Shown piece after piece: positions 39,271 through 57,332 of a stretch of 64,000 bases of DNA. Position numbers and translations under genes: made by a program. Below the pieces are notes generated by a model. It saw only the letters and a list, made by a program, of their open reading frames with translations. It searched no databases and was not told the DNA's origin. The first letter of the stretch is position 1; each line of letters opens with the position of its first letter. The DNA comes from a virus, in the IMG/VR virus record IMGVR_UViG_3300026076_000002; one strand, given 5' to 3'.

Positions 39271-39496
39271 GACCACATTGCCATCACTTAATGATTTATA
39301 CATGGGAGATACAGTAAGAACTACACAGGGTGATGTAGGAACAGTAGCATTTATAAGTGAGTCATACTTTACTATCCTCGTAACTAGAGGTCATCATAGA
39401 TCAAGAGATGTACATTTGCTTGTACATTGGGACAGTGCATATACTGTCACACATACTGTAGAAAACCTTTCTGATGATGATATTATAGTATCATAA
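39269..39496 (+). CDS. Small hypothetical SH3-like protein (start reassigned from 39233)
   Basis: GDTVRTTQGDVGTVAFI; C-terminus runs through the next promoter. Confidence 0.5.
   Translation: MTTLPSLNDLYMGDTVRTTQGDVGTVAFISESYFTILVTRGHHRSRDVHLLVHWDSAYTVTHTVENLSDDDIIVS
39431..39486 (+). promoter_or_regulatory. Phage early-promoter motif, copy 1
   Basis: GACAGT-N6-ACTGTCAC, 30 nt, TATTAT. Confidence 0.75.
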
Positions 39497-41892: not shown

Positions 41893-43023
41893 ATGCCACG
41901 CACTATTGACTTTACACCACACTTCGATTCTATCATCAATAAGTATGGAGTCGAATTGGATGCCGATATGATTAAAGAGTACGTTGCTTTGAATCCTGAT
42001 GTATCATACCAGACTGTCACCAAGTATCTTAATGATTTTAAGATCAAGCGTGGCAAGTGGGTAATAAACAAAAATCAAAAGGAACAGCAACCAGTAGTTC
42101 AAACTATTGCTCAACCAGTACCAACAAATACTGATAGGTCACTTAAGAAGACTACCATTGATGTAGAGAATCTTGTACCTGATAAGGATAAAACATTTGT
42201 TCCTTTTGGTGGATTTAGTGACCTAAAGAAAGTAATAGCATCAAGACAGTTCTATCCTACTTTCATTACTGGTATGAGTGGTAATGGTAAGACTTTTGGA
42301 GTAGAACAGGCATGTGCCCATTTAGGTAGAGAACTTATCAGAGTCAACATCACAGTTGAGACTGATGAGGACGATTTGATCGGTGGATTTAGACTGGTCA
42401 ATGGTGAGACCGTATGGCATAATGGACCAGTTATTGAAGCACTTGAAAGAGGATGTGTATTATTACTTGATGAGATTGATTTAGCATCAAATAAAATACT
42501 ATGCTTACAATCTATTCTTGAAGGCAAAGGAGTATTCCTTAAAAAGATAGGTGAGTATGTTAAACCTACTGCTGGATTCACAGTTGTTGCTACTGCCAAC
42601 ACTAAAGGTAAAGGTAGTGATGATGGAAGGTTTATTGGCACTAATGTATTGAATGAAGCGTTCCTTGAGCGATTCCCTATTACATTTGAGCAAGCATATC
42701 CTACTCCAAAAACTGAGAACAGGATACTTAGAGCATTATGTGAACAACTCAACATACCTATGATAGGTGAGCATGAGGACTTCATTGTACATCTATGCTC
42801 ATGGGCAGAGATAGTCAGGAAGACTTTTGCTGAAGGTGGAGTTGATGAGATTATCTCAACTAGGAGACTTACTCACATTATGAAAGCATACTCCATTTTT
42901 GGAGATAAAATGAAAGCAGTTGATCTATGCTTGAATAGATTTGATGATGAGACCAAAGAGTCTTTCAGACAACTCTATACTAAGTTAGACCCTACTGTTA
43001 CTATCACTCCAGAATCGGAGTGA
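41893..43023 (+). CDS. cobS: CobS-like MoxR-family AAA+ ATPase
   Basis: Walker A GMSGNGKT, ETDEDDLIGG, Walker B LLLDEID, ATANTKG, NEAFLERF, STRRL. Confidence 0.92.
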   Translation: MPRTIDFTPHFDSIINKYGVELDADMIKEYVALNPDVSYQTVTKYLNDFKIKRGKWVINKNQKEQQPVVQTIAQPVPTNTDRSLKKTTIDVENLVPDKDKTFVPFGGFSDLKKVIASRQFYPTFITGMSGNGKTFGVEQACAHLGRELIRVNITVETDEDDLIGGFRLVNGETVWHNGPVIEALERGCVLLLDEIDLASNKILCLQSILEGKGVFLKKIGEYVKPTAGFTVVATANTKGKGSDDGRFIGTNVLNEAFLERFPITFEQAYPTPKTENRILRALCEQLNIPMIGEHEDFIVHLCSWAEIVRKTFAEGGVDEIISTRRLTHIMKAYSIFGDKMKAVDLCLNRFDDETKESFRQLYTKLDPTVTITPESE

Positions 43024-43058
43024 TATACATATAATGTACTTCATTCTCCCAGTTTACC

Positions 43059-43187
43059 ATGAACCCTTACCTACTTGCATTTGAACCGACTGAGTGGTAC
43101 AATGAGGAGTATGAGAACTGGGATGAGGATGATTATAGAGATCAAACAGATCACTATGAGGCATTATCGGTCAAATTCTATTCATAA
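43059..43187 (+). CDS. Small acidic hypothetical protein (42 aa)
   Basis: MNPYLLAFEPTEWYNEEYENWDEDDY... Confidence 0.45.
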   Translation: MNPYLLAFEPTEWYNEEYENWDEDDYRDQTDHYEALSVKFYS

Positions 43188-43208
43188 GCAATGCTTATCA
43201 TTAGATAC

Positions 43209-43237
43209 TTGACAAGCACTTCAATCCATAGTATACT
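43209..43237 (+). promoter_or_regulatory. Sigma70-type promoter
   Basis: TTGACA-17 nt-TATACT. Confidence 0.85.
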
Positions 43238-43243
43238 TTGTAT

Positions 43244-43500
43244 ATGAATCGGGGTTGAGCAACTAGGAGAGCATCACTGCCGATCCCTGAGAACTGAGTT
43301 AGTACCTAACCTTGTAGTTAGGTGAAGCACCACTTGACCAGTTCAGACATCTCGGAGTGTAAACTGTCCGTCTTATGACGTTGCTTGTAAAACACTTTCC
43401 CTTCTTTGTTATGTCCACGTATGACTCAAAACTGCTAGGGTGTACCGCCTCAAACTATTACCTACATTAGTTAGAGGCATTATTCTATATCATGCTAAAT
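43244..43500 (+). ncRNA. Putative structured non-coding RNA or long leader
   Basis: About 255 nt, higher GC, no credible ORF; stems ATCGG/CCGAT, GAACTG/CAGTTC enclosing ACCTAAC/GTTAGGT, and GCCTC-AACTA/TAGTT-GAGGC. Confidence 0.55.
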
Positions 43501-43501
43501 C

Positions 43502-43717
43502 ATGCAAATCTCTGGTTCATCCGCTATCACATCCGTATCATTTGGTGACAACAACAGCGTTGCTGTTAAGTACACTACTAACGATAAGGAGTATGGATTT
43601 ACAGCGAAAGATCAGAATGTGATTAAGGCAGGTCTTGAGACCACCATTTCAAAAGGTGAGTCTGTTGGTCGTCTTATTGCTGGTTACCGTAGAAACGGTC
43701 AACTACAAGCAGTTTGA
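43502..43717 (+). CDS. KTSC-domain-like small protein
   Basis: SSAITSVSF..VAVKY....Y.F....GESVGRLI matches the KTSC pattern. Confidence 0.6.
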   Translation: MQISGSSAITSVSFGDNNSVAVKYTTNDKEYGFTAKDQNVIKAGLETTISKGESVGRLIAGYRRNGQLQAV

Positions 43718-43759
43718 TCTTTAAATACAACTGAATACTTTTATTAATTAATTTAATAT

Positions 43760-43790
43760 AACCCCTATTGAGTAGGGGTTTTATTGTTTT
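43760..43790 (+). terminator. Rho-independent terminator
   Basis: AACCCCTA-TTGAG-TAGGGGTT followed by a T-rich tail. Confidence 0.85.
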
Positions 43791-43810
43791 TACACTAAGG
43801 AGTTTTTAAA

Positions 43811-44404
43811 ATGTCATGTGACAATCATTTGGATTATAACACAGTCTGGGAGGCAATGAACTCTTTAGATGAGGAGATAAGAAACTTTCAACAAGCGATT
43901 GAAATGTCAAACGATTTGTTGACTGAGGCAAGGGAACATGGTAATGAGTCTATCATAAAGACTGCTGAATTACTACAACGATATGTTGACTGGCAATGGC
44001 ATAGGTTAGAGTCAGTTGGTGTTACAGCATGGAATGAGACAGTTGTTAAGTTGAAAGACTCAGAAGAACCACTTGTTATCAACACAGGACTAGGTACTGA
44101 GTCAGCAACATATAATGTTGATCCAACATCATTTATTACTGATGATGATTATACATTGAACATTCCTGAAGATATGACAGTCAGTTTAAATACTGATGCT
44201 GAGATTCCAGGAATTGACATAAGTGATCTAGGTTATGCTGGTCTCACTCCTGAGAGTATATCATTAGATACTGATGATATTATAACAACTGGTATTCATA
44301 CTGACTACTTAAATGATGCAGCGTATGGACTAGGTGAGGATAAACAACAAGCAGATGAGTTATGGGATGCAGTTGGGTTTAATCCTGATGAGGAGGTCAA
44401 ATGA
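43811..44404 (+). CDS. Acidic hypothetical protein
   Basis: AAGGAG RBS; helical N-half, low-complexity acidic C-half. Confidence 0.65.
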   Translation: MSCDNHLDYNTVWEAMNSLDEEIRNFQQAIEMSNDLLTEAREHGNESIIKTAELLQRYVDWQWHRLESVGVTAWNETVVKLKDSEEPLVINTGLGTESATYNVDPTSFITDDDYTLNIPEDMTVSLNTDAEIPGIDISDLGYAGLTPESISLDTDDIITTGIHTDYLNDAAYGLGEDKQQADELWDAVGFNPDEEVK

Positions 44405-44613
44405 AACTTGAAATAGATGAAAACGATAGAGAACTATTGTTTGAATCATTATGTCATTATGATATGCACAATGAGTTAAACTCAAAAGAGAATGATTCAT
44501 TCCATTATCTCTATGGTGAACTTTCACCTTCATTCACACCTGATGAAATAAAACAGAATAAGGAAGTGGCAGCAAGGGTAAGGGCAACAGTTCCACCAGA
44601 GACATATACATAA
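44401..44613 (+). CDS. Small hypothetical protein
   Basis: GGAGG RBS; ATGA overlap. Confidence 0.65.
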   Translation: MKLEIDENDRELLFESLCHYDMHNELNSKENDSFHYLYGELSPSFTPDEIKQNKEVAARVRATVPPETYT

Positions 44614-50110: not shown

Positions 50111-50194
50111 ATCGTCATCTAAGAGTGATAAGAAAGAAGTGGTAATCGTGCCACAAAATATAATAAAATGGAGGACGCTAAAAAACTATTGATC

Positions 50195-50253
50195 GTGTAC
50201 CAGTTGGGAAAGTGTCCACTATTACCCCACAATACCCTAGAATCGGTTATTAT
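50195..50253 (+). promoter_or_regulatory. Phage early-promoter motif, copy 7
   Basis: GTGTACCAGTT-N4-AAGTGTCCAC, 28 nt, TATTAT. Confidence 0.75.
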
Positions 50254-50308
50254 AAGTATATCGGGGAGGGAAACCAAACCGAGAGTCCTTAAACCAATTA
50301 GATTCTAC

Positions 50309-50539
50309 ATGAAACTAACTCCAATAGCAGCAAACCAAACTGAGTTAACACTAAACAACGGTACACAAGTTTTCTTCAGTTATAAAACCCCAGTTGCCGC
50401 TTATGACTCCGTTTCTGGCAAGTTTTTAAGAACTTCTTACAAATGGTCAGTAACAACTAGCAGACATATTAACAAGTGGTTAGATACAAGAATTGCTGAG
50501 AATGTTGACCAAAGTGTATTAGATTCACTGGTCAATTAG
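50309..50539 (+). CDS. Small phage protein (start reassigned from 50168)
   Basis: MKLTPIAANQTEL..VFFSYKTPVAA..WSVTTSRHINKWL; the upstream part of the track ORF is promoter sequence. Confidence 0.7.
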   Translation: MKLTPIAANQTELTLNNGTQVFFSYKTPVAAYDSVSGKFLRTSYKWSVTTSRHINKWLDTRIAENVDQSVLDSLVN

Positions 50540-50558
50540 TATTCTTGACTAACAACTG

Positions 50559-50585
50559 AATACCCCTAATCCTAGGGGTATTTTT
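50559..50585 (+). terminator. Rho-independent terminator
   Basis: AATACCCCTA-ATCC-TAGGGGTATT followed by TTT. Confidence 0.85.
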
Positions 50586-50811
50586 ATACCCAAAATTATT
50601 AATCCCTTCACTAAGTAACAATCAATGAAAACAGTTAAATTAACAGATATACAACACAATCTTCTCTTAGATGTTATATCAACGGTTGCAAGTTTGGATC
50701 TTGATAATAACTATGAGGGAACAGAATTTGATGGACAATTTAATACTTTATGGGATGCAGTTATAGCAGCAAACTAACATTTAAACCCACCCAATTACCC
50801 CACTAATTATT

Positions 50812-56339: not shown

Positions 56340-57332
56340 TTATAGGTAAATATGTTCACCCCAACCCTTTGGTAGACTACCAAATTCCTCTTCCCATTCA
56401 TCATATACAAATTGCAACTTTTCCTTAATTATAGCATAGAATTCTGGTGTCATTGATTCACGTTCTGAGTGCCATTGATCTCTTAAACCAGGAATTTTAG
56501 GTGAATTTACACCCATTTCTGGCCAATAACAGTTAGAGTGAAGTTTTTTAATCTCATAATCTAAGAAATTTGATAAAGGTTCGGTTTTACCATCCCAAAA
56601 TTCTTCCATTACGGTAGCATGTGTAGGAAAATACTTCTTCCATTTCCTATAATGCTTAACATATTCGCAATCTTCAAATGAACGGACATCTTGACAAGCA
56701 ATAACCTTATCAAGTTCAGCAATTAAGTATTTCATAGCGTTTGGATAGACTCTTCCATGGTGAAGTCTGTAGTATCTGGTCTGAAATTCTGAAAAAACCC
56801 GTCTAACTGGGTCTCTAAAAATCAATGATACCTTAGTATCAAACCATTCATCTAAAAATGGTTTAAATTTTTTGATTTTTTCCTCCGATAAATGGAAATT
56901 TGAATTAGAAAAGTCAGCAACTGCCTTATAATTACTACAATGTTGTAATTCTAACCAGTGATTTCTATAAAAATGGCAATATTTTTGAATTGTAAAGGGA
57001 GGAGTCATCCAATTTATCTTTTCTTCCTCAGTAAGTTTCATAAATGGGGAGTGAACACCCACAATTACCTTTTTATTACAATCAACCCAATACTTATTGT
57101 TAGTTTTTTCTTCTATTTTTGGAGTTGAAATCTCTTTTTTGTACTTATCCAAATAATATTGCTTCGGAGGACCATCTATGAACCTCAAATATTCAGATTC
57201 TTTCCAATAACCAGGATGGCAGTACTCATTTTGAATCGCTAAAGTACACATTAGGGGAGTTGTAGCACTCCAACCTGTACCTGCTGCTATAAGAAGACTG
57301 GGAGTCTTATTAGTATAACGATTTTTATTCAT
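56340..57332 (-). CDS. Sulfotransferase-like P-loop protein with a variant 5'-PSB motif
   Basis: GTGWSATTP, KES, ADFSN, FRDPVRRVFS; paralogue of 38063-39208. Confidence 0.65.
   Translation of the reverse strand: MNKNRYTNKTPSLLIAAGTGWSATTPLMCTLAIQNEYCHPGYWKESEYLRFIDGPPKQYYLDKYKKEISTPKIEEKTNNKYWVDCNKKVIVGVHSPFMKLTEEEKINWMTPPFTIQKYCHFYRNHWLELQHCSNYKAVADFSNSNFHLSEEKIKKFKPFLDEWFDTKVSLIFRDPVRRVFSEFQTRYYRLHHGRVYPNAMKYLIAELDKVIACQDVRSFEDCEYVKHYRKWKKYFPTHATVMEEFWDGKTEPLSNFLDYEIKKLHSNCYWPEMGVNSPKIPGLRDQWHSERESMTPEFYAIIKEKLQFVYDEWEEEFGSLPKGWGEHIYL

Follow-up and report, generated by a model that had tools for sequence, protein, structure and literature searches.

The unit considered here occupies positions 43209–43790 of a 64,000-nucleotide (nt) stretch of DNA from the virus record IMGVR_UViG_3300026076_000002, which is referred to below, at its full length, as the window. 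It comprises a promoter, a long leader, a gene for a protein of 71 amino acids (aa) with the KTSC fold, and a terminator. Judged from its sequence, the window comes from an uncultured relative of the marine T4-like cyanomyoviruses. A CobS-like AAA+ protein (phrog_249), 62–65% identical to the CobS of Synechococcus and Prochlorococcus myoviruses, is encoded upstream of the unit. The features of the unit, including those of its 5′ and 3′ untranslated regions (UTRs), are the following.

43209–43237, + strand: promoter TTGACA-17-TATACT, sigma70-type and early, matching the consensus at 11 of 12 positions.
43251–43401, + strand: predicted irregular long hairpin of about 150 nt (the rod), obtained with RNAalifold from the window and its relatives L017–L020; its helices are P0 (43251–54/43398–401), P1 (43257–63/43380–86), P2 (43266–71/43364–69), P3 (43275–83/43352–59) and P4 (43291–96/43339–44).
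43288–43347, + strand: V element, a modular hairpin of about 60 nt capping the rod (covariance model R1, 65.2 bits, expectation value (E) 5e-15).
43413–43439, + strand: degenerate "class A" proximal element, a short hairpin plus TCAAAAC...CTAGG, matching the GTCATGTCGTATGAC-TCTAAACTAGGCATTG block.
43447–43478, + strand: proximal hairpin GCCTC.AAACTA / TAGTT.GAGGC, predicted with RNAalifold and ending 23 nt before the ATG.
43502–43717, + strand: 71-aa gene for the KTSC-fold protein (phrog_4357), an open reading frame (ORF) with no Shine–Dalgarno (SD) sequence.
43727–43737, + strand: 3′-UTR motif ACAACTGAATA, conserved after the stop codon.
43760–43790, + strand: intrinsic terminator, with a stem of 9 base pairs (bp) at 43760–43780 followed by a T-run.

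The promoter is the sole promoter-like site on the + strand within 42500–44500 and is nearly invariant across four close relatives; transcription would start near 43244. No reading frame is open through the 258-nt leader that follows (~43244–43501). The segment 43213–43439 is the longest stretch of the 64 kb without an ORF of ≥40 aa on either strand, and the GC content of the leader is 0.43 against 0.369 for the window. A coding leader was rejected because it holds no ORF of ≥40 aa and because insertions and deletions among the relatives break the frames. A 31-aa ORF at 43375 was rejected as coding since its ATG reads ATA in L019, and the N-terminal extensions of the predicted proteins P0001, P0005 and P0006, which lie in a frame different from that of the window, are artefacts of gene calling. 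The SD-less 71-aa ORF stands in contrast to the next gene, which is preceded by AAGGAG. Among close relatives, the 71-aa gene diverges by 0.018 at codon positions 1+2 versus 0.042 at position 3. Directly 3′ of it, the GC-rich hairpin and T-run expected of an intrinsic terminator are present and invariant in the close relatives. The initial annotation, made from the sequence alone, had described a self-contained unit with a near-consensus sigma70 promoter, a long non-coding and GC-richer leader, and a terminator closing the ORF; all of these features were borne out. A search for transfer RNA and transfer-messenger RNA genes found none.

Homologues of the gene were found by an alignment-based scan, a single-protein query of viral contigs having given none; the set consists of 16 IMG/VR loci and 49 metagenome loci with 43–100% protein identity. 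In every lineage the gene has its own sigma70-like promoter shortly upstream, and a terminator lies 3′ of it in 48 of 48 distinct downstream sequences. Because every lineage has its own promoter and terminator, the unit is conserved as such. Its genomic neighbours vary, as it lies directly after cobS in some lineages and elsewhere in others. The window's leader is common only to four near-identical Tara contigs (L017–L020, 96–100% protein identity). The remaining homologue loci, ~60 in number, have leaders of ~60–110 nt built from different hairpins, the length across all homologue loci ranging from ~60 to ~265 nt, and a 17-mer from the rod had no match in IMG/VR. This distribution does not support the idea, put forward in the initial annotation, of a single ~255-nt non-coding RNA (ncRNA) family paired with the protein. 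The leader looks like a patchwork rather than a separate ncRNA family.

Several further observations concern the homologue loci. The terminator hairpins of the KTSC-like gene often keep an ATTGAGT loop on stems that covary (ACCCCT../..AGGGGT, ATCCCCG../..CGGGGAT). In L002–L010 and L022–L027 a TATAAT-like box directly follows the terminator, as in a PeSL-like fusion (see below). In L002, L007 and L008 the promoter and the first ~25 nt of the leader are tandemly duplicated (TTGACC..TATGAT TACTAAGTAATCAGG) ~100–190 nt upstream of the gene. An intergenic module GGCARGGGT ... AATCGAACCTC ... GTAAGTCCC, with a variable middle, is found in L001, L011, L026, L028, L035, L040, L041 and L106, where it sits upstream of the KTSC-like gene or adjoins V; it gave no Rfam match at gathering score when the L001 and L011 copies were scanned. 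Another module, AAGCGAGGT ... GAAAGGAACC ... ACCTCGC, is promoter-proximal and lies 100–200 nt upstream of the gene in L022, L023, L025, L030, L033, L034, L036 and L037; its inner hairpin covaries (TAGGTAGG/CCTACC versus GGTGG/CCACC). L024, L067 and L132 share the module GTGTAAGCGATTCCCAG..GGTAAATTTGGGC. These phages seem to draw repeatedly on a common stock of hairpin modules. In many relatives (L021, L023, L039, L001, L024, L025, L030), the last 15 nt before the gene hold a three-codon mini-ORF ending on or beside the main start (TGATG, TAATG, TAA-ATG), and in L013 and L011 an in-frame ATG lies two or three codons upstream of the main start. These mini-ORFs and upstream ATGs may be related to SD-less initiation.

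The distal part of the leader was compared in five sequences, the window and L017–L020. Pairing is kept at every variable site of P0 and P1 (GC to AU in L017, GU to AU, GU to GC). In P4 the change in L019 is compensatory (GACTTT/AAAGTC for GAACTG/CAGTTC), and so is that in L020, where each arm is one base shorter. The tip of the rod is hypervariable: L017 carries a 10-nt insertion, L018 has lost all of it but a minimal hairpin, L019 carries a different insert in place of V, and L020 has a longer insert. L018, from which V is deleted, is still predicted to fold into the same rod. Comparative support is strong for the terminal hairpin and modest for the enclosing helices, and the rod as a whole is plausible but weakly supported. 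Comparison of the upstream regions of homologues, which the initial annotation had proposed as a check, revealed conserved RNA structure in a leader that the window shares only with the four near-identical contigs. That annotation had not recognised the RNA family, and neither did Rfam release 15 (4227 models), which gave no match to the leader (43240–43500) at E up to 10 and none in 16 related loci.

V is the best-supported structured part of the leader. Its architecture comprises a closing helix with a bulged A, an invariant 5′ strand (G/C)TTAGTA, a variable distal hairpin and an invariant 3′ strand TGAAGCACCNCTTGA. When 16 copies are aligned with MAFFT, both partners vary in 13 of the 14 pairs, pairing is kept in 89.5% of the alignment cells (30–40% in slid controls), and the covariation score was reached by none of 500 shuffles. 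We read the AGTA/TGAA strands as similar to the purine-rich motifs found in internal loops of loop-E type. With covariance model R1, the window shows no clear copy other than 43288–43347. Three distant homologues (L043, L044, L060) have a leader with the same architecture. A 14-mer pattern scan of IMG/VR gave many chance matches besides at least ~25 full V copies among the matches listed, all in intergenic positions of marine phage contigs, and R1 found 23 copies in the first 100 of the loci fetched with the 14-mer. There is usually one copy, or two, per genome or contig. The copies lie before or after different genes, often at gene 3′ ends, and are variously followed by a T-run (terminator-like), placed just before a gene start, or set inside another conserved hairpin. 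V had no match to any of the 4227 Rfam models at E up to 10. It appears to be a new family among the orphan structured RNA motifs of marine phages, and it may sit unnamed among the 8,495 IMG/VR candidates of PMC10690425.

A cultured phage carries V as well. Prochlorococcus phage P-SSM2 (NC_006883.2) has one copy at 56826–56903 (80.1 bits with R1; L186/L187), within a spacer that carries no annotation, 30 nt ahead of PSSM2_071, which encodes a 43-aa hypothetical protein, and P-SSM5 has an identical copy. Despite its V, the family profile found no KTSC-like gene in P-SSM2; as a positive control, the same profile found the gene in 5 of 5 control contigs. Conversely, R1 found no V in any of these five KTSC-bearing contigs, one of which is a 100%-complete genome of 192 kb. 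V is thus not tied to the KTSC protein, since P-SSM2 has V without a KTSC-like gene and the five KTSC contigs lack V. An obligate pairing of the two was therefore rejected, as the best-supported structured part of the leader occurs elsewhere independently of the gene. The ribonucleoprotein (RNP) pairing suggested in the initial annotation finds no support.

The signals kept across the gene family lie closer to the coding region: family-wide, the UTRs share just two, YTAAA(C/G) before the ATG and CAAYTGAATA after the stop codon. The YTAAA(C/G) core is found in all lineages 32–42 nt before the ATG, as CTAAACT, ATAAACT, CTAAAGA or CTAAAAC. In the clade of the window it reads TCAAACT (YYAAA(C/G)) at 43450–43456, position -52, with a second, degenerate copy at -76. 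Its distance from the ATG is fixed and that from the promoter is widely variable. In 1.39 Mb of related DNA, the longer variants of the motif lie mostly before the KTSC-like gene; the other matches are background-like and without leader context.

Lineage-specific short hairpins with some covariation flank the core. The GTCATGTCGTATGAC-TCTAAACTAGGCATTG block of class A precedes the gene in ~15 distinct relatives; its outer pair switches from G-C to C-G without exception (15 of 15 distinct sequences), and another pair is often mismatched. The class D proximal stems show, in our reading, two double changes. The hairpin that the initial annotation had placed just before the ORF is indeed there, at 43447–43478, with one compensatory change: the A-U pair 43453/43472 becomes G-C in L019. 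A single secondary structure for the proximal element could not be defined across lineages (RNAalifold 0 to -12.8 kcal/mol per class). An upstream mini-ORF as the meaning of the motif was rejected, because in our reading neither its ATG nor its frame is kept across the classes. On the 3′ side, CAAYTGAATA lies ≤35 nt from the stop codon in 50 of the 63 homologue loci, and comparison by eye with the 5′ motif revealed no convincing complementarity between the two.

Similar signals flank an unrelated gene of the window.

50195–50590: second cassette, with promoter, leader, 76-aa ORF, ACAACTGAATA and terminator.

Its leader starts with ATCGGGG, as the KTSC leader does, TTAAAC lies ~21 nt before its ATG at 50309, and ACAACTGAATA stands at 50552–50562, ahead of its terminator; the shared bookends of the two cassettes are at 43248/43727 and 50260/50552. 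The encoded 76-aa protein (phrog_5643) is unrelated to KTSC, and the ORF call of 123 aa at 50168–50539 probably overextends the real gene. In the window at large, TAAAC (often GTAAAC or ATAAAC) occurs 13–45 nt before start codons, for example near 39490, 46420, 48055, 25240 and 62700. In three early cassettes it was seen 6–7 nt past the -10 box, close to where transcription is expected to begin, and GTAAAC was noted before genes adjoining V copies in other contigs (L112, L142, L105). As the unrelated second cassette shares the UTR signals and TAAAC is enriched before genes, the signals look cassette-level, not a private KTSC operator.

The 71-aa protein itself has no match in Pfam, KTSC (PF13619) included, even at E up to 10. 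The Pfam KTSC profile matched none of 20 close relatives and only 3 of 59 remote relatives, weakly (best E 0.0017). PHROGs assigns the protein to phrog_4357, of unknown function. An AlphaFold (AF2) model built from 20 relatives has a mean confidence (pLDDT) of 90.8 and a beta-beta-beta-alpha-alpha-beta topology. The top Foldseek match of the model is 7x8c_A, from the sole crystal structure of a KTSC family protein (probability 0.94, TM score 0.66/0.67 over 68 columns), with an E of only 0.36. VIA-align against representative structures gave 7x8c with Z 7.9, a root-mean-square deviation of 2.1 and 63 of 69 residues, followed by a runner-up at Z 5.2. A profile of the 59 remote relatives, which were selected from among 105 representatives with E < 1e-3, also ranked 7x8c first among PDB entries (E 0.015), with a C-terminal segment of HerA second (E 0.22). 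The protein is of equal size to KTSC proteins (PF13619, 7x8c), has the same topology and shares an N-terminal SSxI, a central Y-x-aromatic and an S-x-G-K/R-(L/F)-I near the C-terminus; the central motif is Y31-G-F33 in the window protein, Y-Q-Y in 7x8c and Y-T-Y in some relatives. It differs in being only 19% identical to 7x8c and below every Pfam threshold, and it is set apart from Pfam KTSC as a phage family of its own, phrog_4357. The name "KTSC-like" given in the initial annotation is thus acceptable for the modelled fold (7x8c, Z 7.9) and does not extend to a match with the Pfam profile. The accompanying statement that KTSC domains are established nucleic-acid binders was too strong, as binding has only been postulated or predicted (PMC8541194, PMC9503650). 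In cultured phages, blastn and tblastn gave no match to either the region or the protein, even when E was raised to 1 with a second family member as query, and in its present form the family seems so far confined to uncultured contigs.

With moderate confidence, we read the unit as an autonomous early small-gene cassette with a composite, cis-acting and lineage-specific 5′ UTR. This reading starts from the observed anatomy, protein fold, conservation pattern, covariation and mutual independence of V and the gene. The host sigma70 RNA polymerase would start near 43244 and stop at the terminator at 43760–43790, yielding a monocistronic messenger RNA (mRNA) of ~545 nt for the 71-aa KTSC-fold protein. 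Its 5′ UTR would consist of two parts: the ~150-nt irregular hairpin with one V copy at its tip, and the segment 43413–43478, in which a short hairpin and YTAAA(C/G) form the leader signal kept across the gene family. The proximal motif and hairpin may set translation initiation, mRNA fate or both for the SD-less gene, and would do so via a factor shared with other cassettes rather than via the KTSC protein alone. The rod and V would be an optional accessory, acting as a 5′ stabiliser or as a binding platform for a phage or host protein. V in turn is a promiscuous hairpin of conserved structure, which marine T4-like phages place at many intergenic positions. Compared with the initial annotation as a whole, the unit, the KTSC-like fold and a conserved RNA structure without a match in Rfam are retained, and the single ncRNA family and the tie of the RNA to the protein find no support; the autoregulatory leader raised there may yet hold.

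Several points weigh against this reading. We infer the transcription start, the limits and length of the transcript, the action at the RNA level and every functional role from sequence and comparison. Taken by itself, the leader does not fold with unusual stability, its minimum free energy (MFE) z-scores of -1.28, -1.29 and -1.45 being not significant. Since single-sequence folding is unremarkable, the word "structured" rests on the comparison with relatives, and of the "nested stems" of the initial annotation the terminal hairpin is strongly and the enclosing helices are modestly borne out by comparison, with no backing from MFE. The support for the rod amounts to about four pair-preserving transitions, which by our estimate could arise at a chance level of roughly 5%. 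Among the five close sequences the leader diverges by 0.034–0.051 and the synonymous sites of cobS and the KTSC-like gene by 0.039–0.042; as the leader diverges like synonymous sites, its sequence conservation alone shows no constraint. The pair 43450/43475 of the proximal hairpin is U.U, hence broken, in L017 and L018. Finally, TAAAC lies upstream of 11 genes in the window against 3.6 ± 1.8 expected, and because it is generally enriched before genes the motif could work at the DNA level, for instance as part of a promoter.

The rival explanations and the favoured reading are not all mutually exclusive. Following the last point, YTAAA(C/G) might be a DNA signal, that is, a second, phage-specific promoter of middle- or late-like type 30–50 bp before the gene, giving early and then later transcription. 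An early-plus-late arrangement has been described for cyanomyoviruses (PMC2984593) and proposed for the "middle" genes of MotA-less T4-like phages. Besides the enrichment of TAAAC, this idea gains from the late-promoter-like sites NATAAATA or CTAAATA that stand 26–54 nt before structural-gene ATGs in the window, a range overlapping the 32–52 nt of the motif. However, the late core TAAATA is found in none of ~45 distinct leaders, which have TAAACT, TAAAGA or TAAAAC instead, and conservation reaches into flanking hairpins with covarying stems. In L019, moreover, the core changes from AAA to AGA together with a compensatory change in its hairpin partner, and this joint change points to RNA pairing. 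A second promoter is accordingly judged unlikely. We hold another explanation to be equally improbable, in which a permissive 5′ UTR has gathered the rod and V as selfish or neutral passengers, hairpin modules that move or recombine readily and do nothing for the gene. Among near-identical genomes V is precisely present or absent, replaced or furnished with insertions; it occurs in many contexts, even inside other hairpins or terminators, other lineages have other modules, and the leader shows no more conservation than synonymous sites do, all of which a passenger would explain. But the two long invariant loop strands of V and its covarying helices show selection on the folded molecule, its low copy number per genome or contig is unlike that of typical repeat families, and no transposase-like partner is known.

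The gene's own product offers another candidate partner for the RNA. In a dedicated RNA–protein pair, the KTSC protein would bind its own leader or 3′ UTR and repress its own translation, as T4 gp32, gp43 and RegA do, or form a stable RNP with the leader RNA. The proximal 5′ motif and the 3′ motif, both of which contain AACT(G), are kept across the gene family while their flanks diverge, YTAAA(C/G) stands at a fixed distance from the SD-less start, and others have predicted the KTSC fold to bind nucleic acids (PMC8541194, PMC9503650). Such a pair is nevertheless doubtful, and a little more so than the two explanations above, as the large structured part, rod plus V, is either restricted to one clade or promiscuous and does not depend on the gene, UTR motifs of a similar kind are found around an unrelated cassette, and the binding by KTSC is only postulated or predicted in the literature. 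A riboswitch, raised in the initial annotation, would make the leader, or V within it, an aptamer for a small molecule. Invariant internal-loop nucleotides flanked by covarying helices are what such an aptamer could look like, and V sometimes lies immediately before a terminator-like T-run or a gene start. No consistent gene class lies downstream of V, however; V flanks unrelated genes, often at their 3′ ends, and is dispensable in the near-identical relative L018, from which it is deleted, while the rest of the leader is confined to one clade and not conserved across homologues, and no Rfam model matches. We consider a riboswitch very improbable. Somewhat speculatively, and with a probability we would put as low as that of the dedicated pair, V may be the operator of an unrecognised post-transcriptional regulon of marine T4-like cyanophages: a plug-in module, binding a protein or a ligand, that is grafted onto the hairpin tips of 5′ UTRs and terminators and brings unrelated transcripts under one control. 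The YTAAA(C/G)/CAAYTGAATA bookends would then be a second layer on small early cassettes, that of the KTSC-fold gene included.

The favoured reading, an early cassette with a composite leader, can be compared with known systems. The translational operators of T4 include the gene 32 pseudoknot with its unstructured leader, the gene 43 hairpin operator and the RegA sites. The unit resembles them in that an early gene of a T4-type phage has a structured element some tens of nt ahead of its start codon. It differs in that no similarity of sequence or structure is seen and the motif of the window is common to an unrelated cassette. Candidate structures before gp32 have been reported in IMG/VR (PMC10690425). 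In anatomy the unit can also be set beside the PeSL cassettes, small genes framed by promoter and terminator in the hyperplastic regions of T4-like phage genomes (Arbiol et al. 2010, PMC2839356; Comeau et al. 2014, PMC4122927). As in these, a small ORF of unknown function has an early promoter close to consensus on one side and a stem-loop terminator on the other, conserved bookends are common to unrelated cassettes of one genome, and in some relatives the next TATAAT box directly follows the terminator. PeSLs, by contrast, are short composite terminator-promoter motifs with no long structured 5′ UTR, V, YTAAA(C/G) or CAAYTGAATA, and the 5′ side of the unit in the window has no fused terminator-promoter element.

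A further structured RNA lies at the edge of the window.

1–102: manA RNA (RF01745), 67.4 bits, its 5′ end cut by the window edge; the only Rfam match above gathering score in the window.

Like V, manA RNA is covarying, intergenic, associated with marine cyanophages and of unknown function; it differs in being represented in Rfam, where V and the rod match no model. Between cobS and the unit, a highly acidic ORF of 42 aa (43059–43187) was noted, with a TATAAT box ~20 nt upstream. Among close relatives it diverges by 0.050 at codon positions 1+2 against 0.126 at position 3, and it is probably a real gene whose rate of evolution exceeds that of the genes around it.

Beyond the sigma70-type early and the NATAAATA late promoters, little is understood of how T4-like cyanophages regulate their genes. 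To our knowledge, these phages are without MotA and AsiA, and nearly all of their small early genes lack a known function. Our findings suggest that cassettes in the hyperplastic regions of T4-like cyanophages carry conserved UTR signals, and that the present unit goes beyond cassettes of the PeSL type by its long structured leader and its new UTR motifs. They also point to a KTSC-fold family that is conserved, as an early product, across an uncultured clade. V is a strongly covarying element outside Rfam that appears to circulate among marine myoviruses, being gained and lost between near-identical genomes, and since the cultured phage P-SSM2 carries it, its function could be tested at the bench.

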